Assembly (NCBI GenBank): GCA_964282835.1
Contig: OZ196157.1
Coordinates: forward strand, 60,600-124,599
DNA: 64,000 nt
Direction: 5' to 3'
Source of the DNA: an uncultured Granulicella sp.
GTDB taxonomy: Bacteria > Acidobacteriota > Terriglobia > Terriglobales > Acidobacteriaceae
A model generated the notes under the pieces. The model ran no database searches and was not told the origin of the DNA. It worked only from the letters and a program-made list of their open reading frames with translations. The first letter of the stretch is position 1. Each line of letters opens with the position of its first letter. The position numbers and the translations under genes are program-made. Below, in pieces: positions 14,891-48,453 of the stretch.

Positions 14891-17017
14891 ATGCGAGCTT
14901 TACTCCGTTCGACTCTCTTCTCTGCAGTCTCCTGTGCGGCTCTACTGCTTTCCGGCTGCTCGAACAGTTTCGACCCCACGCAGGGCGATAACCCGGAAAC
15001 ATCGACCATGAGCATGCAGGGCGAAGTGTTTGGCGGCTTCTTTCCCGTAAGCGGTGCCCGCGTATTCCTTTTCTCGCCCGGCACAAGCGGCGTGGGCGGC
15101 GCGTCGACCTCGCTGATCAGCGCAAGCACGACCGGATCCGCGATCGACAGCACGAGCGGCTCGATTACGTATGGCGCACGCTATGTGCTGACGGACTCCA
15201 AGGGCGGGTTCACCTTCACGTCGACCTGCACGTCGGGTCGCTACGTTTACCTCTATGCCTCGGGCGGCGTGGCCACCACGGGCGGCGCGAATAATCCCCA
15301 GATCGGCCTGATGTCGGTCGTCGGCGAGTGCCCGGGTACGGACACAGTCGACGCGACGCCCTATGTCCGCATCACGGAAAACACGACGGTGGCGGCAGCC
15401 TATGCGCTGGCCGGTTTTGCGACCGACCCGGGCCACATCAGCTATACCGGCACCTCGCTCGGCCTGGTGGGGCTTGGCAATGCGTTCGGCACGGCGACCA
15501 ATCTGTTCAACCAGCTGGTGGCGGTGGACAGCGCCTCATCTATCAACGGGTTCCCCGCCGTTACGACCACCCCGAGCAGCACGGGCACGATCCCGCAGAC
15601 GCTGCTGAATACGTTGTCGAACATCCTGGTGGCGTGCGTCAACTCAGGCAACAGCGCTTCTGCGACGACTACGGGCTGCGACAACCTGCGGAAGTATGCC
15701 ACCAGCGATGGCGCGGTCGGCACGGGGTCGACGGCTCCTGCCACAGGCAGCTTTAGTGCGGACGCACCGGCCGATACGGCCACGGCGATGATCAATATCG
15801 CGCACCATCCGTTCGCGAATCTCACGAGTCTCTTTAACCTGCAGGGTACCGGCGCCGGCGAGGTGTACAAACCGGCTCTCGGGGCCGCACCCACGAGCTT
15901 TATGGTCGAGGTAAGTTATACGGGCGGCGGGGTGAGCTCCGACACGGCCCAGACCAACAATCACCGCATCGCCATCGACGGCGTGGGGAACGTCTGGTTC
16001 CCAAATACGTTTAACTCAAATGTCAGCAAGTTCAGCCCCCTGGGCATCCCGCTTTCGGGCAACAATGGTTTTACATCGACGAACGGCAGCTGCCCACTTG
16101 GCGGTCCTGGCGGCAGCGGCTCCAGCACCTATGTCGGCCCGATCGCCATCGATCTTTCCGGCAATGCCTGGATCGGGTTTACCGACGCTTCAAATTCCAT
16201 CTGCGAACTCGATCCGACAGGGGGCACAGTCTTCGCGTCATCGCCGGGCGCCGCAGACGGGACTCAAAACTATTTTGGAGTGATCGATATTGCCTTCGAC
16301 TCGGCAGGAAATGCCTGGGCGGCCGACAGCGCCGCCAACTCAGAGAGCGGCGCGCTCTACGAATACAGTGGTACAAACCACACGCTGCTGGTCACGGAAA
16401 ATGGCAACAGCCAAGCGATTTCCTACGGGGTGGCCATTGACGCGCCCAACTCGAACTCGGGACATACGGGTGATATCTGGGTTGCGGATGCCGCTGCAAC
16501 TTACGACAGTGTTTTCAACGCCACAGGCGGCACGGCAAGCTTTTCTCCTGCGTCGGCGGGATCCATTTCCTATTCGACGGGACTCGCCATCGACGCCAGC
16601 GGCAACGTGTGGAATATGTCATCCAGCAGTAACTTTCCCGTTGGAGGGTATCTCAGTAAGACGAACGCGACGGGAACCTCGGGGACGTCCTACACGTTTC
16701 CTTCGATCGACAACGGATTCGCAATCGCGATTGATGGCGCGGGGAATATCTGGATCAGCAACGATGACGAGGGGAACTACATCGATATCGCGGAAGTGAG
16801 CAATAGCGGAGCCTTGCTCACGCCCGCCGCCGGCTTTATTCCTTCCGGTCCGGCAACAGTGGGGGGAGCCCGCTCGCTCGCCATCGACGGCTCCGGGAAT
16901 GTCTGGTATCCGATGGCAGGCGTTGCCCAGTTGAGAGAGTTGGTGGGTGCCGCCGTTCCGGTCGCGACTCCCATTGCCTACGGGACGGCGAACAACAAAC
17001 TAGGTGCGCGGCCGTAA
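14891..17017 (+). CDS. NHL-repeat beta-propeller lipoprotein (paralogue B)
   Basis: The ATG at 14891 gives MRALLRSTLFSAVSCAALLLSGCS (signal peptide plus lipobox); the longer listed ORF from 14822 would abut the divergent gene. Blades GNVWFPN, GNAWIGF, GNAWAADS, GDIWVADA, GNVWNMSS, GNIWISNDD, GNVWYPMAG. The central segment is collinear with paralogue A. Confidence 0.75.
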   Translation: MRALLRSTLFSAVSCAALLLSGCSNSFDPTQGDNPETSTMSMQGEVFGGFFPVSGARVFLFSPGTSGVGGASTSLISASTTGSAIDSTSGSITYGARYVLTDSKGGFTFTSTCTSGRYVYLYASGGVATTGGANNPQIGLMSVVGECPGTDTVDATPYVRITENTTVAAAYALAGFATDPGHISYTGTSLGLVGLGNAFGTATNLFNQLVAVDSASSINGFPAVTTTPSSTGTIPQTLLNTLSNILVACVNSGNSASATTTGCDNLRKYATSDGAVGTGSTAPATGSFSADAPADTATAMINIAHHPFANLTSLFNLQGTGAGEVYKPALGAAPTSFMVEVSYTGGGVSSDTAQTNNHRIAIDGVGNVWFPNTFNSNVSKFSPLGIPLSGNNGFTSTNGSCPLGGPGGSGSSTYVGPIAIDLSGNAWIGFTDASNSICELDPTGGTVFASSPGAADGTQNYFGVIDIAFDSAGNAWAADSAANSESGALYEYSGTNHTLLVTENGNSQAISYGVAIDAPNSNSGHTGDIWVADAAATYDSVFNATGGTASFSPASAGSISYSTGLAIDASGNVWNMSSSSNFPVGGYLSKTNATGTSGTSYTFPSIDNGFAIAIDGAGNIWISNDDEGNYIDIAEVSNSGALLTPAAGFIPSGPATVGGARSLAIDGSGNVWYPMAGVAQLRELVGAAVPVATPIAYGTANNKLGARP

Positions 17018-19384: not shown

Positions 19385-20366
19385 GCGACATAGCTCCTGT
19401 GACTTTGACTCGACATTGCGCGGAATGAAGTCCTGACCGGCTTGCTACTGCCGGTCGAGACCTGCTGGGTAAACGTGCCGGCGGCCGTGAGCTCGGTGAT
19501 CGAGCTGTTGCCGGAGTTGGCGTCCAGATGTTGCCGGGCACGTCGATGGCTGCCGGCGCGCTGATGGTGCCGTTGCCCGCAAACGGCGAGCCGGTGTAGG
19601 GCGAACGTAACTGTTGAACGCGGAACCGAGCTGCCGCCGGCGTTGGCGACCCAGGCATTGCCGCCCTGGTCGATCGCGACCGCGGCCGGCGCATTCAGGC
19701 CGTTTCCCGTAAATGGCGAGTCGAAAGCGGCTTGCCCATCTGCGTGAGCACCGAGACCGAGTTGCCGCTTGAGTTCGCCACCCAGATATTGCCGGCGGCG
19801 TCGACCGTGGTCGAGGCAGGCTTGCTGAAGCCGGCTGCGGAGTAGGTAATGGCGAGCATCCAGTCGGCTGGTGCGGAAGTCAGCTGCGGCGCGAAGGGCG
19901 CCGACGGCGTGGTCGTGTTGTAGATCGCCGCCACGTTTAGGATCGGGTTATGCGCGATGCTGAGCGCGCCTGCACGGTGTCGGTTGGCGCCGTGCCGCCA
20001 GCTGAGGTCGCCAGGCTGAACAGCGTCCCGCATGCGGTGGAGTCGCCGGCGGTGCCGCCGGTCGAGTTGATGCACGCCGCAAGAATGTCTGCCAGGGTCA
20101 CAATCTCGCTCACAGGCCCGACTGCGCCCGCCGGAAGCGCGCTGCCCATAGCCGCGCCCGTCCCCACGTTGACCAGCTTGTTTACCGACGCGAACGCGTG
20201 CGTCAGCCCGGTCGTGTTGGCCGCAGACGAGCCCAGGGCGGCGATGCTGCTCATAAACGGTGCGCGCGCGAACACGCTGCCAACCGTCGTAATCTCGTTC
20301 ATGCCTAAGCATGGGGTTTTCAGCACCTGACAACCTTTGCAATTACCCGTCTCGAGATCAATGTTT
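19381..20366 (-). pseudogene. 5'-truncated, multiply frameshifted NHL-lipoprotein paralogue (paralogue C)
   Basis: Collinear with paralogues A and B but split over at least four frames: GNCKGCQVLKTPCLGMNEITTVGSVFARAPF...NTTGLTHAFASVNKL...ACINSTGGTAGDSTACGTLF / ..ADWMLAITYSAAGFSKPASTTVDAAGNIWVANSSGNSVSVL / SPFTGNGLNAPAAVAIDQGGNAWVANAGGSS / GNIW..ANSGNSSITELTAAGTF. The signal peptide and N-terminal domain are missing. Confidence 0.7.
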
Positions 20367-31800: not shown

Positions 31801-32745
31801 ATGCCTCTACTCAATCGCCGCCTTTTCTGCCAGCTCGCCTCCGCTGCCGTGACTGGACATCGCCTTGCGCTCAATGCCCAGGATGCAACCCAGGAGTCAC
31901 CCCGCATCCTGTTGCCCGTAAATGTCTGCGGTAGCTTCGGCTATATAGACGCCAAGGGCACCCTTGCCGTCCCGGCACGCTACGACGCCGCTCTTCCGTT
32001 TGCCACCGACTGGGCCGCCGTGTGCCGCGAAGGCAAATGGGGGTACATCGACCGCAGCGGCAAGGAGACAATCCCACCGCAGTACGATGAGGCACGCAAC
32101 TTCCGTTATAACTGCAGCCCCGTCCGCATCGGAGCCGAATGGCACTTCATCCGTCCGGATGGCTCGGAGGCTTTTCCGCAACGGTTTGAGCTGACCCGCA
32201 GCTTTCAGGATGGGCGTGCGCGCGTGCGCGTCAACGGCAAATGGGGCTTTATCGACCCAACGGGAGACCTGGTGATCCCGGCCATCTACCAGACCGTGCA
32301 TGGCTACAGCGATGAGATTGCCCCGGTGCAGCTCGAAGATAAGTGGGGCTTTATCGACAAAGCAGGAAAGACCATTCTGCCATTTCGCTACGATACGGTG
32401 ACGAGCTTCAATGCGGGCGTGTGCGCCATCGTCATGGATGGCAAGTGGGGGTTCATTCATCGCGACGGTTCGGTCGCGCTGCCGGCAAAATGGGAGAAGA
32501 CCGGCGAGTTTGCCGAGGATCTTTGCCCTGTGAAGTCAGATGGCAAGTGGGGCTTGATCGACCTGACCGGGAAACTGGCTCTGGAGCCTACCTACGATGC
32601 GATGGACTCCTTTGACAGCGGCCATCTTTTGGTCACACAGAACAAGCAGTTGATCTACCTGGACCGGTCGTTCGATCCGATCTGGAAGGAACAGATGAGC
32701 TGCCCTGCGGGAACTTCGTATGGAATGTACAAGGCGCCCGCCTAA
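31801..32745 (+). CDS. WG-repeat (KWG-type) protein, probably exported
   Basis: AGGAGA lies 7 nt before the ATG. The N-terminus MPLLNRRLFCQLASAAV is Tat-like. Six repeats of the type GKWGYIDRSGKETIPPQYDEA, GKWGFIDPTGDLVIPAIYQ, DKWGFIDKAGKTILPFRYD, GKWGFIHRDGSVALPAKWE, GKWGLIDLTGKLALEPTYD. Confidence 0.75.
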   Translation: MPLLNRRLFCQLASAAVTGHRLALNAQDATQESPRILLPVNVCGSFGYIDAKGTLAVPARYDAALPFATDWAAVCREGKWGYIDRSGKETIPPQYDEARNFRYNCSPVRIGAEWHFIRPDGSEAFPQRFELTRSFQDGRARVRVNGKWGFIDPTGDLVIPAIYQTVHGYSDEIAPVQLEDKWGFIDKAGKTILPFRYDTVTSFNAGVCAIVMDGKWGFIHRDGSVALPAKWEKTGEFAEDLCPVKSDGKWGLIDLTGKLALEPTYDAMDSFDSGHLLVTQNKQLIYLDRSFDPIWKEQMSCPAGTSYGMYKAPA

Positions 32746-35672: not shown

Positions 35673-36494
35673 AGCACAGCCTCGAGTATGACGTCTGGGT
35701 GCAGCACCTGCGTTCTAGCGAATGTTCAAGATGGTGAAGCGAGTGCTTGAGACGCGTGCGAACGGCCAACCTCCTTTCCATGCACATTACGTCAGGGGGG
35801 GACTGCGAAGGTGTATGGATTTGCCGGCGCCTGGTCTGGAATAGGCGACGCTGTTTGCCCCGCAGTGTTCTGGGGACGGCCGCTCAGTGATTGTGAGTGT
35901 CCAGGACACCACCCACACTGGCATTACCGGGTGGCGACCACGGGAGCGCCACGGGTGGAGATGCTGAATCCGCCCAGATGGACAAGGCCATGTTGGACGA
36001 GCGGTATGGCCTGTATTTCTAGGCGAATACGGGCGCAGGCATGCTGCGGGTGCTTTACCGGAAGGGGCTTCCATCCGGGCCGGCTGAGCCGATCCCTGAG
36101 CTTAAGGATGTGAAGCCGGACCGCGACTGGACGATCCAGGATAGCGGGCTGATCTACCTGGGCGCTGCCGCAGGGGTTTACACGCTGGAGCAGTACGATC
36201 TTTCGACCGGGTGAACTACTACGCTACCTGGGCCTGTACCGCGGGTGTCCTTCTTTTGGGGTTCAGCTATGTGGCGCAGACTCACACACTCATCTACCCG
36301 CGGCTGCGCGAGAGCTCCGGAACACAGGTCTTCCTGGTGCACCAGACAAAGTAGACTGTTGTCGCTATGGTAAGCACAGGCTGAGCCGCTGTATCGATGG
36401 CGGTATCCGTTCCGCGTCTGCCGCGGGCTTGAACCGAAGAACAAACTTCACTTGATCTGATCTCCAATCGTCGAAGGTGCAGACCTCGCGATTG

Positions 36495-37568
36495 CTACTG
36501 ATCATTGTGTGTCACACGTTCGACCATGTGGAACAGGGTTTGCATCTGCGGCCCCGATTTTACGGCGTAGTCTGGATCGTTTAGATAACCCCACCAGTTC
36601 CAGCAGCCTTGTGCATTGCTCCCGGTTGCATTCGTTGCAACAGCTTGAGGGTACAAGACTATTGTGTGATTCGTGTCCGCCCATTGATTCACTCCCGAGT
36701 TGTTGATGAATGTCAGGCCAACGGCACTATAAGACTGTTGGCAGCCATGCAGTACAAGCACTAGCGCGCACTTGGTACCCGTAGCGCAATCTTGCGGAAC
36801 GTACACATAGCCCATACTGTCCATGCTGAGCGCGGCCGCGCTGCCACCGGGGGCGAACTCATTCTGGTTGAAGGACAAGAGCGAGCCCTTGAGGATACCG
36901 TTGTTCTTCGGCATAAGCGGTCCTAGCCAACGCGTCAACCATATCTGCTCAGAGTCGTAGGGCTGTGACTCACTGGGTCCGGACGCGCCACTCTGGGTGT
37001 TATCAGCTTTGGAGCATGTAACCAGGTAGGGACTGCCGGCTTGGGGGCAAAGGTTTGGTCCGTAGGGTGACTCCCAACCATGCGCGGCGAGGTAGGAATG
37101 GTCGTAGTGAAAGACGCTTGCTCCTAGAGATTCGTACTGCGTCTTGAGCGCATCCACCAGCGGTTGACGCACGTTGGTATCGAGCAGCCCTGACCACAGG
37201 TAAACCGGACTGCCTTTCAGATTCCCAAGGGGATCGATGAGGCCCTGCTCCGCCCAGCCCCTGACAACGGAAGTTAGAGTTTCAGCGTCGACTGGCGGAA
37301 CGTTGGCGATACAGGTGGTGAGCGCGTTGGCCAGGCTGTCCTGAGCACAATCGTCCGGACCACCGGCATAGATGGCCGCACCATGAAACGTCCTGGAGTA
37401 GGCAACATGCATCTGCACGGCCATGAAGGCCCCGGAGGAGATGCCGGCCACGTAAACGCGGTCAGAAGCGACGTTGTATGTTTGAAGCGCCTGACCGCGA
37501 GCGGCCTGAGAACCCAGGCCGGCCATTGCCACAGCCAGAATAGATGCGAGTCGACTGATGTTGTACAT
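36495..37568 (-). CDS. phaZ: Extracellular short-chain-length PHA (PHB) depolymerase, type-2 (permuted) catalytic domain
   Basis: Start at MYNISRLASILAVAMAGLGSQAARG (signal peptide). The lipase box VYVAGISSGAF is near the N-terminus. The oxyanion/LHGC segment ALVLVLHGCQQS...VLYPQ...AQGCWNWWGY is near the C-terminus. This is the esterase_phb motif set in type-2 order. Confidence 0.65.
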   Translation of the reverse strand: MYNISRLASILAVAMAGLGSQAARGQALQTYNVASDRVYVAGISSGAFMAVQMHVAYSRTFHGAAIYAGGPDDCAQDSLANALTTCIANVPPVDAETLTSVVRGWAEQGLIDPLGNLKGSPVYLWSGLLDTNVRQPLVDALKTQYESLGASVFHYDHSYLAAHGWESPYGPNLCPQAGSPYLVTCSKADNTQSGASGPSESQPYDSEQIWLTRWLGPLMPKNNGILKGSLLSFNQNEFAPGGSAAALSMDSMGYVYVPQDCATGTKCALVLVLHGCQQSYSAVGLTFINNSGVNQWADTNHTIVLYPQAVATNATGSNAQGCWNWWGYLNDPDYAVKSGPQMQTLFHMVERVTHNDQ

Positions 37569-37602
37569 ATGATCCTTCCAGAGGCAATGGTTGAGAGCGC
37601 CA

Positions 37603-37672
37603 CACATCGCAACGAGCAGACGCTCATAAAACGAGCGCCCGATTTATACTTGGTTCAGCCTAAAATTGTCAA
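37603..37672 (-). promoter_or_regulatory. Sigma-70-type promoter (TTGACA-N18-TATAAA) with downstream operator-like inverted repeat, upstream of phaZ and divergent from the TetR gene
   Basis: On the minus strand: -35 TTGACA (37672-37667), 18-nt spacer, -10 TATAAA (37648-37643), then CGCTC-N7-GAGCG (37637-37621). A near-identical copy lies at 46943-47010. Confidence 0.6.
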
Positions 37673-37844
37673 GAAAGGACGAGGATCTCGGCGAAGTCCA
37701 GCGCTTCAGGCACTCCGTACAGGGATGGGTGCAGGATATGGCAGCCGAGAATGGTTAGCTACTCTCGACTCTTCGTCTAAACTGGGTAAGATCCTCGTGA
37801 CAACAGGCTTCAAAGGCTCTTACTCGTTTTGTACTTGAAAGTCG

Positions 37845-38531
37845 ATGCGCATGAAAAGACTCGTTCAGCAGCGAATCCAGGAAAACCGCGAGGCCATCGA
37901 GTCGGCGGCGCTTTCGTTGTTTACGTCACAAGGCTTTCATGGGACGAATATTCGAGAGATCGCTGAACGGTCGGGACTTTCGGTCGGCGCGATGTATAGC
38001 TACTACCCGAATAAGGAAAGTCTTTACGTCAGCGTCGTGCGCAATGTTGAAGTCCGTCTCAGCAACCTTCGCGCCAGCATGCTCTTCGCGGCGGAGGACG
38101 AAGATCCTTTCTCGCGGGAGTCGCTGCGTGCCTTCGCAAACGGGCTGCGAACCCTTATTCGTGAAAACATGGACTACTGGCGCTTGATGTACATCGACGT
38201 TGTCGAATTCAAGAATGCGCACTTCGCCGAAAATTTCCAGAACGTCGTCGAGCAGTTTCGCGAGCGCTATAGAGCCGCCTTCCAATGCGTGATGCAAAAC
38301 AGCAACTGGTGCGGGCACGAACCGGGCTTCGTCTACGCGAACTTCTACCACAGTGTCATCACCTATTTCCTGATTGAAAACCTGTTTGGCGGCAAACAAC
38401 ACCTTGGCATGCCCGAAGATGAAGCGATCGATCGTATGATTGATCTTTCGGTGAAAGGCCTCTGGAAAAACCAGGAAGAAGTTCAGACTAAAAGCAAAAC
38501 AAAAAGCAAAAGAGCGGCAAAACGCAAGTGA
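37845..38531 (+). CDS. TetR/AcrR-family transcriptional regulator (candidate regulator of the PHB locus)
   Basis: HTH AIESAALSLFTSQGFHGTNIREIAERSGLSVGAMYSYYPNKESLY. Divergent from phaZ and convergent with the alpha/beta hydrolase gene. Confidence 0.8.
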   Translation: MRMKRLVQQRIQENREAIESAALSLFTSQGFHGTNIREIAERSGLSVGAMYSYYPNKESLYVSVVRNVEVRLSNLRASMLFAAEDEDPFSRESLRAFANGLRTLIRENMDYWRLMYIDVVEFKNAHFAENFQNVVEQFRERYRAAFQCVMQNSNWCGHEPGFVYANFYHSVITYFLIENLFGGKQHLGMPEDEAIDRMIDLSVKGLWKNQEEVQTKSKTKSKRAAKRK

Positions 38532-38536
38532 GGTCT

Positions 38537-39460
38537 TCAGATACGTTCAGCAGCTTCTAGACGTTGCAAAAACTGCTCGATCCTGAACACTGCCATAGGT
38601 TCGGTAAGGGTCGGGGCGTGCCCCCGGTTGGGTATTACCAAGGCTTCTGCTCGTGAGTGGCGGGCGACCATGGCATCGAGAAGATCGGCCGATAATAAGT
38701 CGGACAGTTCCCCGCGGATGGCGAGAAGTGGGATCTTACCCAGTGCAGGCCACAGCGACCATAGATTTGGCAATTCCACAGTAAAATCCAGATTGTTGAG
38801 TAACTGGATGATTGCCGGATCGTAGGCGGCCACGGGTGTCCCACTTGGGTCTTCAAGGTACGTGCACCGCGCGAAAGCATCCCAGTCAGGCCTTGTGTAG
38901 TCGGGAAAAGCAACTTTGTTGACCAACCTAGCTTGCTCGGCCGCCTCACTCCATGACGTAACGGGCGAGAGCGCGGAAAAGGCATCCCGGATGCGTTTTA
39001 GTCCGGCTATGGGGATGACGGGCCCGACATCGTTCAGGATGATGCCGCGGAAACGGGCAGGCTGGGTCGCGCCCATGATCATGGCCATCAGTCCGCCGTT
39101 CGAGGTGCCGAGCAGGACAGGCCCGCCGGATTGCTGGTTGAAACCTAGCTTATCGAGCAGCACGAACATGTCGCCGGCCTGGACGAGTGGGGTGTAGTTG
39201 GCCGGTTCCGGGTCCCATTGCGAACGGCCGCGGCCCCGCTGATCGACCGAAATCATGCGGTAGCGTGGAAGGTGCCGGGCCAGAGCGGCGAAATCAAGGG
39301 AGTTCCGTGTCAGCCCCGCCATACACAGCACGGTCAGCGGGGCGTCGCGCGGTCCCACGTCTGACGCATGAAGTTCGAGGCGTCCATCGGCACTCATAAA
39401 GCTAAGCTCGTGACGCTCGACAAACATAGCTGCAGATGTCATGGTTTGGTTCCCCGGCAT
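38537..39460 (-). CDS. Alpha/beta-fold hydrolase
   Basis: HG-type oxyanion region VLCMAGLTRNS, nucleophile elbow LLGTSNGG, and a C-terminal IPNRGHAP catalytic His context. Confidence 0.7.
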   Translation of the reverse strand: MPGNQTMTSAAMFVERHELSFMSADGRLELHASDVGPRDAPLTVLCMAGLTRNSLDFAALARHLPRYRMISVDQRGRGRSQWDPEPANYTPLVQAGDMFVLLDKLGFNQQSGGPVLLGTSNGGLMAMIMGATQPARFRGIILNDVGPVIPIAGLKRIRDAFSALSPVTSWSEAAEQARLVNKVAFPDYTRPDWDAFARCTYLEDPSGTPVAAYDPAIIQLLNNLDFTVELPNLWSLWPALGKIPLLAIRGELSDLLSADLLDAMVARHSRAEALVIPNRGHAPTLTEPMAVFRIEQFLQRLEAAERI

Positions 39461-39595
39461 GTGCTTACCGTTGCTGGGCCATGTGTGGCAAGCGCGGAGG
39501 CTGCATCTGGCAAGACTTTATTCATCCTTCCCTCTCTCCCTCTTGTGAAATGGTGAATCCTGTTTGCGGCGCGCTTGACCGCGAAATTGCCTGTG

Positions 39596-40384
39596 TTACT
39601 GCGCGGTCCATCCTCCGTCAAGTGGAAGGGATACGCCGGTCAGATTGGCGGCTGAAACCGAGCACAGAAAACCGACTAACGAGCCGATCTCTTCCACTTG
39701 CGTGAACTGCCCGGAAGGCTGCTTTTCACTCAGGAGCAGGCGCTCTGCCTCGGCTCGGCTCAGCCCGCCGGCGGTCATACGGTCGTTGATCTGGGCCTGT
39801 AGTAGAGGCGTTGCAACGAAGCCCGGGCAGATGGCATTTGCAGTGATGCCCAGCCCCGCGGTTTCAAGCGCAACCACCTTGGTGAGTCCCACGAGCCCAT
39901 GTTTGGCTGCGACGTACGGCGCTTTGTATTTGGAAGCAACCAGCCCATGTACAGACGCGATGTTGATAATGCGCCCAAAGCCTGCGGCCTTCATGCCCGG
40001 CAGCACGGCCGCGATGAGGTGAAAGGCGGCCGACAGGTTCAGGGCCAGGATGGCGTCCCAGCGCTCGGCCGGCATCTCCTCGACCGGCGCGACATGCTGG
40101 ATACCGGCATTGTTAATCAGGATGTCCACCTGCCCCCAGGCTTTGAGGGCATAGTTGGCCAGGGTGCGGCACTCTTTCGGGTCGGTGAGGTCGGCAGCGA
40201 GAAAGAGAGCCTGGACGCCGTACTGAGCCTCGAAGGACCGCCGCAGTTCTTCGATCGCATCTGGATCGCCAAAGCCGTTGAGCAGAACATCACAGCCCTG
40301 CTCGGCGAGCACCCTGGCTATGCTGAGCCCGATCCCGCTGGTGGAGCCGGTAACAAGTGCTTTCCTGCCGGAAAGAGGCATCAT
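39596..40384 (-). CDS. bdhA: 3-hydroxybutyrate dehydrogenase (classical SDR)
   Basis: Start at MMPLSGRKALVTGSTSGIGLSIA. NNAGIQHVAPVEEMP and SVHGLVASKYKAPYVAAKHGLVGLTK closely match the BdhA signature. Confidence 0.75.
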   Translation of the reverse strand: MMPLSGRKALVTGSTSGIGLSIARVLAEQGCDVLLNGFGDPDAIEELRRSFEAQYGVQALFLAADLTDPKECRTLANYALKAWGQVDILINNAGIQHVAPVEEMPAERWDAILALNLSAAFHLIAAVLPGMKAAGFGRIINIASVHGLVASKYKAPYVAAKHGLVGLTKVVALETAGLGITANAICPGFVATPLLQAQINDRMTAGGLSRAEAERLLLSEKQPSGQFTQVEEIGSLVGFLCSVSAANLTGVSLPLDGGWTAQ

Positions 40385-40439
40385 CGTTTGTTGTTCTCTC
40401 TTTCTTTCTTCTGCCCAGATTGCGGCGGTCAAGGAACGC

Positions 40440-41882
40440 TCAGGGCGTTACGGTGAAAGTTGTCGGCATGGTATAGACCGGCTGTGTGGCGGCTTCATCG
40501 TGCGGCGATCGGAACTCCTCGGCGCCGTAGAGCTGCTCAGGCAGTCTATCCGGGCGCGCCGGGTAAACGTCTTCAAGCGCCTGATACACAAGCTGGCGCA
40601 GAAGCTGCCGGTAGAGCACCTTGGTCTCAAACCTGGACTGGGCCGTGAACGAGACTGCGATCAACTGCTGTTCCGGATCAGCCCAGAAGTAGGTGCCGCT
40701 GGCACCGCCCCAGTAGAAATCCCCGACCGAGCCGGGTGCGGGATTGCGGCCGGCAGCGGTGCGCACAGCGAGGCCGAGGCCGAAGCCCTGGCCCATTTCC
40801 GGAGTGGGAGCGATGAGGCGCAGGAGTGCCCGGATGTTGTCTGGAACGGTGATGCCGGGTGGAAGATGATTGGACCGCATCAGCATGACGGATTTGGCAG
40901 AGAGAATGCGCTTGCCTTCCAGTTGACCGTCATTGAGCAGCATTTGTGCGAAGCGCAGATAGTCGCCTGCAGTGGAGAACATACCCCCGCCACCAGAAAG
41001 GCATCCGGAGTGGCCACGCTTGCGAGCTTCAGCAGCGGCCCTCAATGGGTTGGGTTCTGAGCTGGCAGGAAGCGGGTCAAATATTGGGTCCCAGGCATAA
41101 GGCGCACCGGGACTTACATGAAACTTCAATGTCTCGAGGCCCAGTGGCCGACCGATATGCTCCTCGATGAACGCGTCGAGTGACTGGCCCGAAACGACCT
41201 CGATCACACGGCCCAGCACGTCGGTCGAAATGGAATATTCAAACGTGGTGCCAGGCTCGCTGGCAAGCGGCATGGCTGCCAGCCGTGTGATCGTTTCCGC
41301 AAGCGGCACATCAAAGCCAGTGCTCCAAACGTTGGCTTCCATGTAGGCCTGATGTACGGGACCGTTGCCGAACTGCCCGTAAACAAAGCCGCTGGTATGC
41401 CGGAAAAGATCCTGCACGGTGGGCTCGCGTCGTGCGGGCTCAAGTGTCCTGGTCACCTTGCCGGACGCATCGACGCGTTCCCGCAGCACCTTCAGCGAAC
41501 GCAGTTCAGGCAGGTAGCGCGATACCGGCTCATCGAGGCACAATAAACCCTCTTCAACCAACACCATGGCTGCCACCGAGGTGACCGGCTTGGTCAAGGA
41601 CATGAGCGAAAACACGGTGTCCTCGGTCATGGCGATGCCGGCCGGCACGGCCGCGTAGCCGAACGCCCGGGAGTAGGCAAGCTTGCCATTGCGCGCGACC
41701 AGCACGACGGCACCGGGTATCTCACCTGCCTGGACGCCGGCTTCCATGCGCGCGTCCAACCGTCTTAGCCGCTCGGCGGAGAATCCCTGGCCTTCAGCGT
41801 CAGTGCGCGGCAAGGGGTCTTTGTGACTCCTGAGGCGATCCTCCGCGGGTATGTCGGACTTTCCAACTGCTGTTGGTTGCAC
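40440..41882 (-). CDS. Beta-lactamase-fold (class C/EstB-like) serine hydrolase
   Basis: S-x-x-K nucleophile motif FSLMSLTKPVT. About 480 aa and no signal peptide. Its position suggests a 3HB-oligomer esterase (inference). Confidence 0.7.
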   Translation of the reverse strand: MQPTAVGKSDIPAEDRLRSHKDPLPRTDAEGQGFSAERLRRLDARMEAGVQAGEIPGAVVLVARNGKLAYSRAFGYAAVPAGIAMTEDTVFSLMSLTKPVTSVAAMVLVEEGLLCLDEPVSRYLPELRSLKVLRERVDASGKVTRTLEPARREPTVQDLFRHTSGFVYGQFGNGPVHQAYMEANVWSTGFDVPLAETITRLAAMPLASEPGTTFEYSISTDVLGRVIEVVSGQSLDAFIEEHIGRPLGLETLKFHVSPGAPYAWDPIFDPLPASSEPNPLRAAAEARKRGHSGCLSGGGGMFSTAGDYLRFAQMLLNDGQLEGKRILSAKSVMLMRSNHLPPGITVPDNIRALLRLIAPTPEMGQGFGLGLAVRTAAGRNPAPGSVGDFYWGGASGTYFWADPEQQLIAVSFTAQSRFETKVLYRQLLRQLVYQALEDVYPARPDRLPEQLYGAEEFRSPHDEAATQPVYTMPTTFTVTP

Positions 41883-41919
41883 TTATAACTTCCTTGCTGG
41901 AGGCCGAAAATCGGCCTGC

Positions 41920-43254
41920 CTAAGCCTTCAACTCCGCAGGTGGAATAGGAGGACTGACGAGCGTGAAAAGAACGACGGCGGAAAGCGCGGACAGCACGGA
42001 CACGGCGTAGAAGACAGGGCTATAGCTATGGTGGTTCTCAAAGACCAAGCCCGCAGCCAGCGGCGCGAACGCGGCCAGGATGGAAACAAATGGCACCTGG
42101 GCGCCCATGATGGATGCAAAATGCATGGGCCCAAAGTAGTTGGCGACGGTAGTAGACCAGCACACGAGCGAACTGCCGTTGCCTAGCCCGAGCGCGACCG
42201 AGCAGGCGTAGACCTTCCAGTCGGCCGTCGCGTTTACCATGCCGAGCATGCCGGCGCACATCAGCAAGGCGCCTGTGCCCCAAAGAAGGCGCGGCTCGAA
42301 GCGGTCTCCCAGTACCCCGGTCAGGAGCTTACCTGCCGTGGCTCCAATCGCGAACACCGAAACGGAAAAGGCTGCGGTCTGGTGCGTGTGGCCGAGGTCC
42401 ATCAGGTGCAGGATACCGTGCGCCAAGTAAACGTAGATGGAACTCATCTGCGCCAGGGCGCCGAGCAGAATCATCCAGAACGCCTGGGAGTGCATGGCTT
42501 GCCGAACTGTCCACATGGTTTCAGACCGAAAAGTGGAGGCTCGCCGTGGGACCGTCGCGATGGCGCTCTTGAGCGAATCGTCCATGCTGCCTGCGGGCGC
42601 GACACCATCCGCGAACTGCTCTACATCGGCCGGCTTGCCGATAACAAACAACGATGCGGCGACACCTGAAAGCACCATCAGAACCGCTGTAAACAGCCAG
42701 CCTGTTCGCCAGGTGCCCATAGCGCTAAGACGCGTGAGCAGCGGCGGCGCAACAAAGCCACCCAAGCCACCCGCGGTCCAAAGAAGCGAGATCGCAAGGG
42801 CGCGCCGCCGGGTGAACCATCTGGCCACACAGGTCTGTGCCGGCACCTGGGTCGATAATCCGATGCCAAGGCCGATCAGCACTGAGGAGATACCGGCAAA
42901 CTGCCAGGGCCGCGTCAATACAGTGCCATTCAGCGCCATGCCGAGCGCCATGATCAAGCTGCCGACCAGGATGGTTCGTCCCGTGCCGATGCGTCGCATA
43001 CACCATGCCGTAAGCGGACCGGAAAGGCCGAACACGCAAGCGGTAATCAGCGCAATGTATCCCAGGAGCCGGCGGTCAAAGTGCAGGCCGAGTACAGTTC
43101 CCGCGTTCAACACCGTGCCGCCGTACTGCGAGAAGCCCATGTTGATGAGAAAAACAAAGGAGAGCGCACCAAGCACACGCCAGCCGGAAAACTTTTCCTG
43201 TTCCACGAGTGTAAGTGGCGTTGAAGAAGTTGTTGTGAGCGACATGGCCTGCAT
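41920..43254 (-). CDS. MFS transporter
   Basis: About 12 hydrophobic helices, with a loop motif between TM2 and TM3 (MRRIGTGRTILVGS). Confidence 0.75.
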   Translation of the reverse strand: MQAMSLTTTSSTPLTLVEQEKFSGWRVLGALSFVFLINMGFSQYGGTVLNAGTVLGLHFDRRLLGYIALITACVFGLSGPLTAWCMRRIGTGRTILVGSLIMALGMALNGTVLTRPWQFAGISSVLIGLGIGLSTQVPAQTCVARWFTRRRALAISLLWTAGGLGGFVAPPLLTRLSAMGTWRTGWLFTAVLMVLSGVAASLFVIGKPADVEQFADGVAPAGSMDDSLKSAIATVPRRASTFRSETMWTVRQAMHSQAFWMILLGALAQMSSIYVYLAHGILHLMDLGHTHQTAAFSVSVFAIGATAGKLLTGVLGDRFEPRLLWGTGALLMCAGMLGMVNATADWKVYACSVALGLGNGSSLVCWSTTVANYFGPMHFASIMGAQVPFVSILAAFAPLAAGLVFENHHSYSPVFYAVSVLSALSAVVLFTLVSPPIPPAELKA

Positions 43255-43354
43255 CTCGTTTAGAAGGGGTTAGGGGTTAGGGACAGCGACTGGTAGTTTG
43301 ACCGGACGTGCGTCACGCGCATGGCACATCCAGCTTTCATCGAGTGCTATCAGC

Positions 43355-46300
43355 TTAGTAGTTCAACTTAAGAGCGAACTGGATCACGCGTGGGCCGGCG
43401 CTGCTGCTGTTGATGACCCCGAGCGTTGAAGGTACCAGCACGTTGTTATTTGGGTTGTTGAAGTTGGCGAAGTTGAAGACATTGAACAACTCCGAGCGGA
43501 ATTCGAGGTTCGTCTTCTCGACAAAGGGAAAGCGCTTGATGACGCTGAAATCCACGTTCCGCTGACCCGGTCCGCGTAACAGATTGCGGCCCGAGGTACC
43601 ATACGGCGGTGTGTTGGTGCAGGAACCGGCAAAAGCGCTGGTATTGAAGTAGTGGTTGAGCCGAGCCTCCGCCGAGCCGGAGTAGCCGGGCGTCTGGCCG
43701 GTGACAAGGTCGGCCCGATTGTAGAGCGCGGAACCGGAGATGCAGTCTACCGAGAACGGTAGTCCCGTCTGGAAAACAGAGATAATGGAAGCGCCCCAGC
43801 CGTTGGCGGCCTCGGACAGAACGTGTGAGTCGCCGTTGTATGCTCGGCCAAGATCATAGATGCCGCTGATCACGATGCGCTGCGTGCGGTCGAAATCCGA
43901 CGCGCCGTATTGCTGCTGAAGGTTGTCCTGGTCTCCGGGCAGGGCCGCGAGTTCGTTTTCAGGCGCGCCGGAGTTGTTGTCGAGCGACTTTGAGTAGGTG
44001 TAAGCCACAAGCGCCTGGAGATGTTTATCGAAGCGTTTGGTAAGGCTGGCCTGCAGCGAGTTGTAATTCGAAGCGGCATTACTCTGGGCCAGATCAAGCC
44101 CATTCAGAGCCTTGTTGCTCGAAAATCCGGAGTTCTGGAGCACCGCCGGAGAATTCGTCTGCCCAAGCGTACTCACGTTGATAAGGTGCGTGCCCTTTGC
44201 GCCGGCATAACCAACCTCGAATAAGTAGTTGCGCAAAGGCTCGTATTGCACGTTCAAGTTGTATTGGTACGTGTAAGGCGAGGTGAAGTTCTTATCGACA
44301 TAGAGGCCGCTGATGGGCGTTTGTGTGCCCGCGAGCGGAGCCCCAAAGAAATAGAACGGGATGGGCGATGGTACGGTTGCGGGCAGAGGAAATGTCAGAT
44401 TGGCTAGGTTGGGGAACGTGGCCGCAAAATTACCCAGGCCCACTCCTACAATGTCATACGGGTAGTCGAAGATCTGTAGGTTCGCAACGCGTGAAGAGAA
44501 GCGGTCGAAGTAGATACCGAAGCCGCCGCGAACGACGAGATTATCCTTGCCGGTCGGTTTGAGGCTGAAGCCTACGCGCGGAGCCACGTTGTATTTATCA
44601 GGATTGAGCGTCTGGTTGCCGCTCAGCAGGTTGAAGCCGTTGTTGGGTGCACCGCATGGCGCAGCTGATGTGCAAGCCGTGGTGTGATTGGCAAGAAAGA
44701 CATTCTCATCGAAGTTGACCAGGCGCCCGCGAATGTCGCTGAAACCACCAAAGCGTTGGAAACGCAGGCCCGCGTTGACGGTAAGATTCGGCGTTACACG
44801 GATGTCATCCTGAAGGAAAGCATCGGCATCTTTGGCGCGAAAGCCTCGGTCGGGCACACCGTTGCCGAGCAGACCGGTAAGCGGCGCAGTGGGAGTGCCA
44901 CCGCTTAGAAATTGCTGGAAGGTGTTGACCAGGATCTCGCCACGGCTGAAGAAATTGAAGGAGAAGTCCAGGCGCTGTACATAGAAGTCACCACCCACGC
45001 GAATATTCTGGCGCCCGTGCGTATAGGTGACGGTATCGGCGAACTGGAATGTGCCGGTCGTGCTGTGCTCATCGATCAGCGGCGCGGACCCTACGGTGAA
45101 GAGTCCATTTACCTGAATGGTGGCGAGCCCTGGGAAGCGTCCTCCGAGCGGGTTGCCGATGCCGACCTGCGCGTTGGTCAGAGGCTCCTGCGGAGCACTG
45201 TAAACTCTAACTCGATTGAAGCCGGCGTGAAAATCGTTGATGACGTTGGCGCTGAACAGGTGGGTTTCATCAATCGAGATAAGACGGTTGCGCAGGTAAA
45301 CGCTTGCGCCGAAACCAGGCGCCTGGAAGGGATTCGCACCCAGAAACGTCGTCACCCCCTGCAACTGGGGCGCGTTCGCAGAAAAGAAGTGTGCGGCGAG
45401 ATGATCCTTCGAGGTCAGGTTGTGATCGAGGTTTATGTCGAATTGTTCTTCACGAAAAGTGGAAAGTGCGCTGAGGGACGTAGAGCAGGTTGTTGTGCAA
45501 TTGATGCCGGAGGCGCTTGGAATCGCGAACTGCGCATTGGGCAGCGTCGCCTGAAGCAACGCAAGCGCAGTCGGGTTGATGGCGGCGACACCCAGGCCGG
45601 CGGCAAGGGCCGTCAGGGCGGCCGAGCTTCGGTTACTGGTCAGGCCGACCGGAATATTCAGCGTGGTCAGGCTGTTGTTCGGGTCGGCGCCGTTCTTTTC
45701 CCGCGTGCCCTGGTAAGCGAAAAAGAAAAAGGTTTTATCTTTGTAGATAGGACCGCCAATCGTTCCGCCAAATTGATTGCGGCGAAGCTCGGGGCGGACT
45801 CCGGGATGGTCTTGCTTGAAGAAGAAGTCGGTGGCGTTAAGGTCTTCGTTGCGGAAGAATTCGAAGGCTGTGCCATGGATTGCGTTGGTGCCGGACTTGG
45901 TGACCAAAGCGACGTTTCCACCCGTGTTCCTGCCCTGCGTGGCATCATAAAGCGCGGTCTGCACGATGAACTGCTGGATGGCATCCGGAGAGGGCACGGC
46001 GAGGTTAGGCGTGGAGTTAGTGCCGATCGAGTTAGCCTGGATGCCATCGATAACAACGTTATTCGAAGTGGCCTGCTGGCCCCCCACATTGATGTCCGCG
46101 TCCCCACGTCCGAGCGCCGTGTTGTTGGCGATGTTCGACGTGACGCCCGGGGAGAGTGAAAGCAGCTGCTCGAAATTTCTGGTGGGCAGGGGCAGATCAT
46201 GCACCTGGCGCTCATCGATGACCCGCCCGTTGGTCGCATCTTCCGTGTTGAGGAGAGGAGCCTCGGCCGTAACGGACACGGTGGTCGACGTACCGGCGAC

Positions 46301-46627
46301 CCCGAGCAGGGGCGAAACATTGACGGACTGCGTGATCTGAACTTCGATTCGCTCTGCGGAGTACCGCGCGAATCCCGATGCATCTGCCGTCAGCGTGTAG
46401 ATGCCTGGCGGAAGCTGAACAAAGTTGTAGGTACCGGTACCACCTGTTGTAACGGTTCGGTCGGTGCCATTGTCGCCTTGGATGTGGACGGTGGCGTTAG
46501 GAAGCGCTGCACCTCGTAAGTCACGAATCGTGCCTAGCACCTCGCCGGTGGTGGCGGTTTGCGCATACCCTGCAACAAAGGTTGAGAACAGCAAGAGAGA
46601 GATAGATGTGAAGCGGATTGCGATCAT
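43355..46627 (-). CDS. TonB-dependent receptor with N-terminal carboxypeptidase-regulatory-like domain
   Basis: Start at MIAIRFTSISLLLFSTFVAGYAQ (GGAGGA upstream). GTIRDLRGAALPNATVHIQGDNGTDRTVTTGGTGTYNFVQLPPGIYTLTADASGF, plug-like HDLPLPTRNF, and a terminal ...PRVIQFALKLNY. Confidence 0.85.
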   Translation of the reverse strand: MIAIRFTSISLLLFSTFVAGYAQTATTGEVLGTIRDLRGAALPNATVHIQGDNGTDRTVTTGGTGTYNFVQLPPGIYTLTADASGFARYSAERIEVQITQSVNVSPLLGVAGTSTTVSVTAEAPLLNTEDATNGRVIDERQVHDLPLPTRNFEQLLSLSPGVTSNIANNTALGRGDADINVGGQQATSNNVVIDGIQANSIGTNSTPNLAVPSPDAIQQFIVQTALYDATQGRNTGGNVALVTKSGTNAIHGTAFEFFRNEDLNATDFFFKQDHPGVRPELRRNQFGGTIGGPIYKDKTFFFFAYQGTREKNGADPNNSLTTLNIPVGLTSNRSSAALTALAAGLGVAAINPTALALLQATLPNAQFAIPSASGINCTTTCSTSLSALSTFREEQFDINLDHNLTSKDHLAAHFFSANAPQLQGVTTFLGANPFQAPGFGASVYLRNRLISIDETHLFSANVINDFHAGFNRVRVYSAPQEPLTNAQVGIGNPLGGRFPGLATIQVNGLFTVGSAPLIDEHSTTGTFQFADTVTYTHGRQNIRVGGDFYVQRLDFSFNFFSRGEILVNTFQQFLSGGTPTAPLTGLLGNGVPDRGFRAKDADAFLQDDIRVTPNLTVNAGLRFQRFGGFSDIRGRLVNFDENVFLANHTTACTSAAPCGAPNNGFNLLSGNQTLNPDKYNVAPRVGFSLKPTGKDNLVVRGGFGIYFDRFSSRVANLQIFDYPYDIVGVGLGNFAATFPNLANLTFPLPATVPSPIPFYFFGAPLAGTQTPISGLYVDKNFTSPYTYQYNLNVQYEPLRNYLFEVGYAGAKGTHLINVSTLGQTNSPAVLQNSGFSSNKALNGLDLAQSNAASNYNSLQASLTKRFDKHLQALVAYTYSKSLDNNSGAPENELAALPGDQDNLQQQYGASDFDRTQRIVISGIYDLGRAYNGDSHVLSEAANGWGASIISVFQTGLPFSVDCISGSALYNRADLVTGQTPGYSGSAEARLNHYFNTSAFAGSCTNTPPYGTSGRNLLRGPGQRNVDFSVIKRFPFVEKTNLEFRSELFNVFNFANFNNPNNNVLVPSTLGVINSSSAGPRVIQFALKLNY

Positions 46628-46942
46628 ACTTTCCTCCAAACGTTGACGTTTCAACTGTGATCCACTCAGCACGATGTTGTGCGTCCAACGGGTAAGTACG
46701 CGCGTTGAAGCACCGTTCGACCGCTCTCCGGCGTTATGTAAGCTGCTGATGTAGAGAATTTGTGTACCCGTTCGCGATGATGTGGACCTGCTACCATCAA
46801 GCCGCCGCGTTATCCAAAATGTCTACTTGAGTCGCTTTAACCCTTACGATCCGCGCACCTCCGCAGCAGGTTGATGTGGCTCCTGGGCAAGATGGCGCCG
46901 GCAACTCCGCAGTGCCGGGTTGAACACCATTTGTCTAGGCAG

Positions 46943-47010
46943 CACATCAACGAACAAACGCTCAAAATATGAACGTCCGATTTATATGTCGTCAACGGCG
47001 AAGCTGTCAA
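46943..47010 (-). promoter_or_regulatory. Second copy of the TTGACA-N18-TATAAA promoter and operator-like element, about 350 nt upstream of the TonB-dependent receptor gene
   Basis: On the minus strand: -35 TTGACA (47010-47005), 18-nt spacer, -10 TATAAA (46986-46981), then CGTTC-N7-GAGCG (46975-46959). 37/45 core positions are identical to 37603-37649. Confidence 0.55.
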
Positions 47011-47289
47011 GTAGTTCCATGAATTCCGCTCGGCAGAGCAGGCTTAGCATTTTGCGGCGCTTGGCCTTTGATGAATGGGCGGTGGATAGCGAGTCTGAGT
47101 ACATCGAGACGGCCGTCACCCTCCTCGGGCGCTGGCGATAGTCCGAGACACAACGCAAAGAAGTGCGCCACCATGTGAGAGCATCTAAGCTCGCGGCGCC
47201 TGAAGTCTTCGCAGACGATTCAGGCCGAGCTCTTGAACGCCTGATTCGGCGCCGTTGTGCCTTAACTGAAGAATCCTACCCTACTTCTT

Positions 47290-48453
47290 CTATTTGAAGC
47301 CGAGTTGATGCAGGGCGCTCTTCAAGCCTTCTATATCGGCCCCGGTCGTTCGGTAGACGACTTTGCCGTCTTCATTCAGAAGGTAGGAGCCGGGGAAAGC
47401 TTCTGTGACCTTGTACTGTTCGAAGATGCTCCCTTTGCGGACGTTTCCGCCAAGCACCACCGGAAACGTCAGTCCCGCGCTCGCCCTATACTTTGAGGTC
47501 AGGGCCGCTGCATCCCCTTTGTTGATGGCAACGATTTCAAAGCCCTGATCGGTAAATTGCTTGTAGAGGTTTTCGAACTCGGGAAACTCGACGCGGCACG
47601 GAGCGCAGTTGTAGTACCAGAAGTTCACCAGCAACGCTTTTTTGCCTCGGAGCTCCTGGTCCAAGGTGATCAGCTTGCCTTCGGGTGTACGAAGCGAAAA
47701 GACCGGCGCAGCCGCTCCCAGCGGCAGCATGCCATCCGTGCCGCTGACAGCCGCCTGTCCGGCTTTCGGCACAAAGTGAAAGCTTGTCTCCGCGATCTTC
47801 CCGTGATGCACATTGGTCAGCGTGGCTTGGAAGAGGGCCGCGTTCGGGCCCTCACCAAATTGCACACTGCTTTCCACCAGATCTCCTTTCGCGTTGAACG
47901 CAAGTTTTTCAATGTAAACCCCCATAGGGCTGTTGCCTTTGACCAGAACGCTTGGAGAACTGGCGCTGTCACCGGGGTGCGACCCCACCTCACTGTACGT
48001 CGCAGTCTTGTCCGGAGTTGCTCCAAAGGGATTCACGCTCTGGGTAAAGAAGAAGCGGAATGGAAGCCCCCACCAGGGACTATCAAGCCCAGCTCCTATC
48101 CCATCCATCGGGGCCTCTTCAAACTTGTCTTCACTCGAAGCGAGATATCTTGTCTGCCCGTTGGAGACGAGCAGGACCTCAGGGTAGTCGCCTTGGAGGG
48201 TGATGCGCCCCAGGTTGGGTTTCGCCAGCTGAACCGTGCCCTTCGTCTGGTGCGTCACACCTCCAATGCGCCAGGTCAGGAGCATGTCGCCACTCAACGT
48301 CAGGCTAAGCCGGCTCTCCGCGACGGCCTTCCCCAATATCCGATCGCGTTGTTGATCGTGCCTCGGCGATTGGCTCGAGGCTGCCGGGATGAGAAGAAGC
48401 GAGAACAACGCGAAAGACCAGCTATACATTGCGCTTTCAGAAAAGTCGAGCAT
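47290..48453 (-). CDS. TlpA/ResA-family thiol-disulfide oxidoreductase with N-terminal LolA-like domain
   Basis: KKALLVNFWYYNCAPCRVEFPEFENLYKQF (CxxC thioredoxin fold). Signal peptide MYSWSFALFSLLLIPAASSQ. Confidence 0.75.
   Translation of the reverse strand: MLDFSESAMYSWSFALFSLLLIPAASSQSPRHDQQRDRILGKAVAESRLSLTLSGDMLLTWRIGGVTHQTKGTVQLAKPNLGRITLQGDYPEVLLVSNGQTRYLASSEDKFEEAPMDGIGAGLDSPWWGLPFRFFFTQSVNPFGATPDKTATYSEVGSHPGDSASSPSVLVKGNSPMGVYIEKLAFNAKGDLVESSVQFGEGPNAALFQATLTNVHHGKIAETSFHFVPKAGQAAVSGTDGMLPLGAAAPVFSLRTPEGKLITLDQELRGKKALLVNFWYYNCAPCRVEFPEFENLYKQFTDQGFEIVAINKGDAAALTSKYRASAGLTFPVVLGGNVRKGSIFEQYKVTEAFPGSYLLNEDGKVVYRTTGADIEGLKSALHQLGFK

Follow-up and report, generated by a model that had tools for sequence, protein, structure and literature searches.

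Duplicated promoter-operator cassettes at a polyhydroxybutyrate locus of Granulicella and their candidate TetR-family repressor

A stretch of 64,000 nucleotides from an uncultured Granulicella sp. (contig OZ196157.1 of assembly GCA_964282835.1), hereafter the window, carries a polyhydroxybutyrate (PHB) locus in which one short promoter-operator cassette occurs twice. Copy 1 (37603-37672, minus strand) lies before the gene of a secreted PHB depolymerase, and copy 2 (46943-47010, minus strand) before a presumed operon that begins with a TonB-dependent receptor gene. Between both units, and divergent from the depolymerase gene, is the gene of a TetR-family regulator (37845-38531, plus strand), the candidate repressor. 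Probably, a sigma-70-type promoter is joined in each cassette to the operator of this adjacent TetR repressor, which an inducer would release, and the cassette was duplicated by operon rearrangement.

On the minus strand, copy 1 reads CTTGACA ATTTTAGGCTGAACCAAG TATAAA TCGGG CGCTC GTTTTAT GAGCG TC TGCTC GTTG CG ATGTG, and copy 2 reads CTTGACA GCTTCGCCGTTGACGACA TATAAA TCGGA CGTTC ATATTTT GAGCG TT TGTTC GTTG ATGTG. The consensus common to both is CTTGACA-N18-TATAAA-TCGGn-CGYTC-N7-GAGCG-N2-TGYTCGTTG-(N0-2)-ATGTG. An earlier reading of the sequence alone (the sequence-only reading) had reported 37 identities in 45 positions, with one 2-nt gap, between 37603-37649 and 46943-46987, and a global alignment reproduces these figures. 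The identical -35 hexamers that it noted are also found: 37643-37672 and 46981-47010 both read TTGACA-N18-TATAAA on the minus strand. The likeness is limited to the -35, the -10 and the following 45 nt, while the 18-nt spacers between the two hexamers are essentially unrelated; thus, only the functional positions seem to have been kept.

Such a similarity had been called unlikely to be due to chance, and the counts bear this out. With 1 mismatch allowed, TTGACA-N18-TATAAA has no further match in the 64-kb window (0.08 expected), and the 39-nt degenerate core TATAAATCGGNCGNTCNTNTTNTGAGCGTNTGNTCGTTG has only 2 matches at up to 3 mismatches, with 0 expected (none in shuffles). The local alignment of the two intergenic regions scores 27, as against 11.0 +/- 1.35 (maximum 20) in 500 shuffles, which corresponds to a z-score of about 12. 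No further operator copy was detected in the window by pattern search or by nhmmer (--max, E <= 10).

The promoter part of the cassette is simple. In copy 1, the -35 hexamer TTGACA (extended CTTGACA), recognised by sequence match and by conservation in orthologues, is located at 37667-37672 on the minus strand, and the -10-like TATAAA, 18 nt past it, at 37643-37648. In copy 2, the same elements lie at 47005-47010 and 46981-46986 of the minus strand, again 18 nt apart. The pair agrees with TTGACA/TATAAT at 11 of 12 positions, the -10 being without its final T, and the placement of the hexamers is conserved. In the orthologous cassettes described below (class T), an A/T-rich (C/G/T)ATAAA stands at the same -10 distance, and CTTGACA is kept across these 12 cassettes, with L004 and L095 reading TTGACT.

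The operator part is more elaborate than first described. The sequence-only reading had proposed one inverted repeat, and this is indeed present: on the plus strand, 37621-37637 reads CGCTC-N7-GAGCG and 46959-46975 reads CGCTC-N7-GAACG, which becomes CGTTC-N7-GAGCG on the minus strand. The operator, however, consists of three half-sites, so that a third one, H3 (YGYTC), has to be added to the two arms H1 and H2. The alignment of 14 sites gives the layout H1-N7-H2-N2-H3 in forward, reverse and forward orientation, CGYTC-N7-GARCG-N2-YGYTC, where H3 lies 2 nt past H2, is oriented like H1 and stands 19 bp from it. In copy 1, the operator (37610-37637, minus strand) comprises H1 CGCTC (37637-37633), H2 GAGCG (37625-37621) and H3 TGCTC (37618-37614), then GTTG, and is followed by the tail (CG)ATGTG (37603-37609). 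The operator of copy 2 (46948-46975, minus strand) comprises H1 CGTTC (46975-46971), H2 GAGCG (46963-46959) and H3 TGTTC (46956-46952), then GTTG, and its tail is ATGTG (46943-46947). Over the 14 sites, the half-site symmetry amounts to 85.7% of cells for H1:H2 and 87.1% for H2:H3. In other clades, only the H2/H3 part remains, as a compact palindrome of 14-18 bp, whereas in the window H1/H2 make the better palindrome.

In both copies, H1 begins 5-6 nt past the -10, so that the operator is predicted to span the expected transcription starts near 37636 and 46974, in keeping with the overlap suggested earlier. With a start 5 nt past the -10, it would cover about +1 to +30. As the operator sits at the predicted transcription start, its position fits repression.

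The cassette was then compared across relatives, for which 80 genome loci, 7 loci obtained through exact-protein look-ups of homologues (L081-L087) and 10 from a TetR-independent metagenome scan were available. Homologues of the TetR regulator are numerous in Terriglobales. The cassette is found, gap-free and in register, directly upstream of orthologous TetR genes or operons in L001-L004, L082, L084-L086, L088, L089, L093 and L095 (12 distinct sequences), and the TetR orthologues that bear it are 48-62% identical to the one in the window. For example, L001 reads CTTGACA-N17-TAAAAA-CACAAA-CGTTC-GTTTTAT-GAACG-AA-CGTTC-GTTTT, after which comes the TetR ATG. The distance from TTGACA to H1 is 28-30 nt in all 13 distinct class-T sequences, and the start codon of the orthologues follows 3-17 nt past H3. 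In 58 of the 80 genome loci, the TetR gene is followed by a receptor gene on the same strand. The strains L098 and L099 were also considered for footprinting at strain level, and at about 99% identity to the window they were uninformative.

The metagenome scan used the exact pattern of the operator alone, CRYTCRTWTTWTGARCRNNYGYTCRTT, and was therefore blind to TetR. It returned 10 stretches, 7 of which lie immediately upstream of homologues of the window TetR (48-58% identity). The other three are a match before an unrelated TetR gene and ABC-2 exporter genes, a match at a contig end and a match on an AT-rich plant-metagenome contig that is probably due to chance. An nhmmer profile of the operator, run over the window and all loci (~1.4 Mb), recovers only these sites, with the two copies alone in the window. 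The sequence-only reading had reckoned with a generic repeat that occurs in unrelated contexts; since 7 of 10 matches of a TetR-blind scan stand before homologues of this very TetR, the motif is not of that kind.

The first of the three other stretches deserves a separate mention. At 1560-1632 of L096, next to the unrelated TetR and ABC-2 exporter genes, TTGACA-N17-TATAAT is followed by CACTC ATTTTAT GAGCA AA CGCTC in the same H1-N7-H2-N2-H3 layout, and the three-half-site design may be more general. Another motif, ATAATC(A/T)GCGG, is present just upstream of several operator-less TetR genes of the family, as ATAATCAGCGG in L084, L009 and L013 and as ATAATCTGCGG in L008 (in L084 at 9960-10000). 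This motif may represent a constitutive promoter and discriminator that have been conserved.

The site and the regulator also vary together. Over about 80 loci, the promoter-proximal palindrome covaries with the recognition helix of TetR. The CGTTC-type operator with three half-sites pairs with the helix ...GTNIR...S(V/T)GA(I/M)Y(T/S)Y..., the operator AAAACGARCGTTCRTTTT with ...GTSVR...S(I/L)GN(L/I)YNY..., and the operator GAGCGAGCGCTCGCTTTG with ...GTTVR...SMGKLYIYY...; the operator GAGCGAGCGCTCGC is likewise the type tied to the helix GKLYIYY. Four loci (L046, L047, L051 and L056) combine intermediate helices with intermediate operators. In comparative work, a site that changes along with the specificity residues of a factor is the usual mark of a cognate pair, and the cassette operator is taken to be cognate to this TetR family. 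The divergent TetR had been named the obvious candidate repressor, and both the tie of the cassette to this family across genomes and the covariation with the helix point to the same protein.

It was also observed that a TetR gene with a TonB-dependent receptor gene, often followed by a short-chain dehydrogenase/reductase gene, is a very common module in Terriglobales (L010, L017 and L022 in class A; L036-L064 in class B). Each such module has TTGACA-N17-TATAAAA with a clade-specific palindrome, and its helix carries A, N or K and T, N or I at two positions.

Several observations weigh against this interpretation. The tandem-TetR loci L005-L019 have a similar recognition helix and no such operator within 10 kb; the code linking helix and operator is therefore not absolute. 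In the window, H2 and H3 do not make the 14-bp palindrome seen in other clades. A strict generic promoter scan lists neither site, the -10 ending in A and not in T. In L081, the closest relative with a different sequence (TetR 78% identical), there is no cassette in the 13 kb at hand; its contig carries TetR, a hydrolase and a coenzyme A (CoA)-transferase, with no receptor and no depolymerase nearby. Lastly, about 347 nt separate copy 2 from the receptor ATG, which is an unusually long leader, and a second promoter nearer to the gene is possible. As a side observation on L081, an integrase-like fragment (...LLVGYTGGLRRSEL...) lies upstream of its TetR gene at 9700-10000, which hints that recombination has reshuffled that locus.

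One could suppose that a different regulator binds the element, for instance a global carbon-control factor or a protein like PhaR, and that TetR is merely adjacent. The TetR gene of the window is without a copy of the site, and the operator-less tandem-TetR loci could be read in the same way. Nevertheless, the site is found essentially only beside this TetR family, even when the search ignores TetR, and the type of operator shifts with the TetR recognition helix. Moreover, no second homologue of this TetR is encoded in the window. A different regulator is, therefore, unlikely.

Equally unlikely is the proposal that TetR does bind the site, acting however as an activator or dual regulator in the manner of PhaD of Pseudomonas putida. 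There is a precedent, as PhaD, itself of the TetR family, reportedly activates pha promoters (PMC7590123), and an imperfect -10 could need the help of an activator. On the other hand, the -35 is a perfect TTGACA, and each of the three operator classes has its site at the -10 or past it, where one would look for a roadblock and not for an activator.

Still less probable is that the transcribed part acts as RNA, with a 5'-terminal hairpin CGCUC-N7-GAGCG that serves as an mRNA stabiliser or a small cis-regulatory leader. The repeat is downstream of the -10 and hence transcribed, and in copy 2 CGUUC and GAGCG still pair via G-U. Yet, over 14 sites, the H1:H2 pairs covary no more than in column shuffles, 343 of 500 of which attain the observed values, and the outer pair is lost in 6 of the 14 sequences. 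A 'helix' of H2 with H3, whose 2-nt loop would be sterically impossible, is kept equally well (87%), which indicates that the symmetry comes from repeated DNA half-sites. The leader of copy 2 folds no better than shuffles (z -0.07), and an Rfam scan of 36400-47400 (E <= 1) returned only a chance match to a small RNA inside the dehydrogenase gene. The short distance from H3 to the start codon in the orthologues also leaves no room for a riboswitch. As for a chance likeness, dispersed repeat or mobile element without regulatory role, this is effectively refuted: copies were counted within 64 kb only, where two were found, but no match is expected by chance, the alignment z-score is near 12, orthologous copies in other genomes occupy a single functional position, and the 1.4 Mb of related loci hold no other copies.

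The mechanism that is proposed for the TetR repressor is as follows. When no inducer is available, one or more TetR dimers would sit on the operator at both promoters and block either open-complex formation or promoter escape. The depolymerase gene and the operon of receptor, major facilitator superfamily (MFS) transporter, esterase, dehydrogenase and hydrolase would stay silent as long as TetR is bound. A cytoplasmic product of PHB breakdown would then bind the C-terminal domain and release TetR, so that both units are switched on together. The candidate inducers are 3-hydroxybutyrate, its dimer or oligomers, acetoacetate, or a CoA thioester of these.

The presence of two copies can be followed through the gene orders of the relatives. 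In L082, a single cassette is followed by TetR, the receptor, the esterase, the MFS transporter and a type-2 polyhydroxyalkanoate (PHA) depolymerase. L084 has a divergent 3-hydroxybutyrate dehydrogenase and then the cassette, receptor, esterase, MFS transporter, depolymerase and TetR. In L085, a divergent dehydrogenase is followed by the cassette, TetR, receptor, esterase and MFS transporter. L086 carries a divergent 3-oxoacid CoA-transferase and dehydrogenase, then the cassette, TetR and an open reading frame cut by the contig end where the receptor is expected. The pair of depolymerase and 3-hydroxybutyrate dehydrogenase genes in the window is thus also met in L082 and L084. A contractile-injection-system (phage-tail-like) cluster was seen just upstream of the PHB operon in L082 (1-8700, genome GCA_030012865.1).

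In the window, the unit is split in three, namely the stand-alone depolymerase, the stand-alone TetR and the receptor operon, and each structural unit has its own cassette. The two copies agree at 34 of 44 positions with each other and at 19-29 of 44 with any orthologue. They have lineage-specific features in common, TATAAATCGG and the GTTG..ATGTG tail. Their mutual closeness and these features point to a duplication within the lineage, or else to co-evolution with the same repressor. Judging from the gene orders and sequences, the two copies are best explained by an ancestral single operon that was split into three transcription units, with the ~70-bp cassette being duplicated.

The label of a PHB locus, given earlier without database searches, proves justified because both the depolymerase and the 3-hydroxybutyrate dehydrogenase score above the cut-offs of curated family models. 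The gene after copy 1 (36495-37571, minus strand) is predicted to encode a secreted type-2 short-chain-length PHA (PHB) depolymerase, its catalytic domain scoring 318 bits with NF050059 (cut-off 280). It has a signal peptide, and its likely start is ATG 37571, with GGAAGGA before it and a leader of ~65 nt. After copy 2, also on the minus strand, come the genes of the TonB-dependent receptor (43355-46627; CarboxypepD_reg, Plug and OMP_b-brl_4 domains), an MFS transporter of the monocarboxylate type (41920-43254), a beta-lactamase-fold esterase (40440-41882), the 3-hydroxybutyrate dehydrogenase (39596-40432; TIGR01963, 327 bits against a cut-off of 307) and an alpha/beta hydrolase (38537-39460). 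These five co-directional genes, separated by gaps of 37-135 nt, presumably form one operon (38537-46627, minus strand). The receptor most likely starts at ATG 46627, which GGAGGA precedes.

No PHA synthase or phasin gene was seen in the 33-50 kb part of the window, the neighbours being genes of degradation and uptake. A 3-oxoacid CoA-transferase gene is absent from the 64-kb window, and the acetoacetate-activating step must hence be encoded elsewhere. Relatives carry such a gene beside TetR or the dehydrogenase (L081, 11735-12436; L086, 276-977). The CoA-transferase gene elsewhere in this genome may carry a third cassette.

The rest of the leader between copy 2 and the receptor gene occupies 46628-46942 of the minus strand. 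No Rfam match was obtained there, and a relic of a TetR gene was sought by tblastn both in this leader and in the intergenic region beside copy 1, with chance-level matches only. The leader together with the operator (46628-46974) has a 9-nt inverted repeat, GTTGATGTG (46951-46943) and CACATCAAC (46878-46870), of which the first arm is formed by the conserved cassette tail. An ATG stands 4-6 nt past H3 in both copies (37605-37607 and 46945-46947), which is where the TetR start codons of L082, L085 and L086 sit. The one in copy 1, read 37607-37605 on the minus strand, is in frame with the depolymerase open reading frame, and one gene caller took it as the start (370 aa, L098). More speculatively, the ATG of the cassette may have been left over from the first gene of the ancestral operon, or it may be an alternative start.

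By domain and fold, the regulator itself belongs to the TetR family. Its helix-turn-helix (HTH) domain scores 51 bits with PF00440, where the cut-off is 24, and no other homologue of the regulator is present in the window. The AlphaFold model, with a predicted local distance difference test score (pLDDT) of 86, finds TetR-family or other helix-turn-helix transcriptional regulators in the top 50 fold matches listed. It resembles the generic TetR folds RutR, FasR, FadR and KstR at template modelling (TM) scores of 0.5-0.6. Sequence matches in the PDB cover the HTH only, the C-terminal domain having no close solved relative there. With HTH-only PDB matches and such TM values, the structure points to no particular inducer.

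The region before the TetR gene (37673-37844) contains no operator detectable by nhmmer; autoregulation of this TetR gene is therefore not a feature of this genome. The layout for it is found in orthologues, where the operator precedes operons with the TetR gene first. Autoregulation by TetR-family repressors is common and not obligatory. Ahead of the TetR gene, a block at 37763-37784, TCTCGACTCTTCGTCTAAACTG, is also kept in L081 (~9800-9830) and holds no operator copy. It may be the promoter of the TetR gene, with TAAACT as a candidate -10.

Classical TetR switches, such as TetR-tetO, QacR-IR1, KstR and the FadR type, share with the present system the TetR_N HTH with an all-helical fold, a regulator beside its targets and a short inverted repeat over the core promoter and start. 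The GAAC/GTTC-type half-sites of the cassette recall the KstR motif. Here, however, there are three half-sites with fixed spacers of 7 and 2 nt in place of one palindrome, and control would fall on an outer-membrane receptor and a secreted depolymerase, not on an efflux pump. Further differences are that the regulator is without an autoregulatory site in this genome and that its C-terminal domain has no close solved relative.

PhaD of P. putida, reportedly a TetR-family activator of the medium-chain-length (mcl) PHA cluster (PMC7590123), is alike in that polyhydroxyalkanoate genes are under TetR-family control via two related operator-bearing promoters. PhaD, however, activates genes of intracellular medium-chain-length PHA synthesis and granules from a site upstream of the promoter. 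In the present case, the genes serve extracellular short-chain PHB degradation and uptake, and the site, downstream of the -10, suggests repression. Beyond the HTH, no sequence relationship between the two was found. PhaR/AniA, a PHB-granule-binding repressor of phasin and pha genes (PMC12542648), similarly ties PHB status to transcription; it belongs to another protein family, though, detects the PHB granules themselves and regulates PHB metabolism inside the cell.

In its gene content, the locus is comparable to the polysaccharide utilisation loci (PULs) of Bacteroidota and to the peg operon of sphingomonads with its receptor PegB (PMC11644497). In all of these, the gene of an outer-membrane TonB-dependent receptor is grouped and, here by prediction, co-regulated with those of a secreted depolymerising enzyme, a transporter of the inner membrane and downstream catabolic enzymes. 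In contrast, the substrate here is a polyester (PHB), and the regulator is a one-component TetR and not SusR, a hybrid two-component system, an extracytoplasmic function (ECF) sigma factor or AraC. A SusD-like partner was not seen at the locus, though no search aimed at SusD was made.

The mechanism proposed, a TetR repressor on an operator that overlaps the promoter, is a textbook one; the regulon is without a description in the literature searched. The full-text literature, of which the coverage was incomplete, gave no account of this regulator, of any specific regulator, TetR or other, over an extracellular PHB depolymerase, or of PHB products or oligomers being taken up by a TonB-dependent route. 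Work on the control of extracellular PHB depolymerases deals mainly with repression by soluble carbon sources.

What is predicted here is a concrete regulator, an operator resolved to the base and a regulon of two promoters, with independent support from about a dozen genomes, which is unusually good backing for work on sequence alone. Extracellular PHB utilisation would thereby gain a first specific regulator, and the cassette would offer a compact promoter, responsive to PHB or 3-hydroxybutyrate, with which bioplastic degradation could be sensed. TonB-dependent uptake of PHB oligomers is also suggested for Acidobacteria, an abundant and poorly understood phylum of the soil. The regulon would have outlived the break-up of its operon by copying its promoter-operator cassette, and an operator code that extends over the family is predicted in Acidobacteria.

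A broader proposal can be made, to which we give even chances. According to it, extracellular PHB scavenging in Acidobacteriaceae would be under an apparently undescribed kind of one-component control by a TetR protein that senses a metabolite derived from 3-hydroxybutyrate and acts through the three-half-site operator on PUL-like genes (depolymerase, receptor, oligomer esterase, MFS transporter and dehydrogenase). The system would be one branch of the Terriglobales-wide module of TetR and TonB-dependent receptor, in which promoter specificity would follow from a simple code of the recognition helix (A/N/K at position 49, T/N/I at position 52). In that case, the regulator would be the first transcription factor known to be devoted to an extracellular PHB depolymerase, and the system would supply a ready-made biosensor part for PHB or 3-hydroxybutyrate.

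Repeats of other kinds were also seen in the window, away from the cassettes. At 62997-63071, a 26-nt unit, GTTGTCATCCCGAAGGGATCTGC, is repeated 2.9 times in tandem between genes, each unit containing a hairpin ATCCC-GAA-GGGAT, and it looks like an element of the repetitive extragenic palindromic (REP) type. A repeat search also revealed periodic coding repeats at 32004-32562 and 15969-16907. One has a 102-nt period with GGCAA(A/G)TGGGG...ATCGAC, and the other consists of TCGCCATCGACGGC..GGGAA..TCTGG units, of which mirror copies stand at 19523-19682. In both cases, protein repeats of the beta-propeller type are probably encoded.

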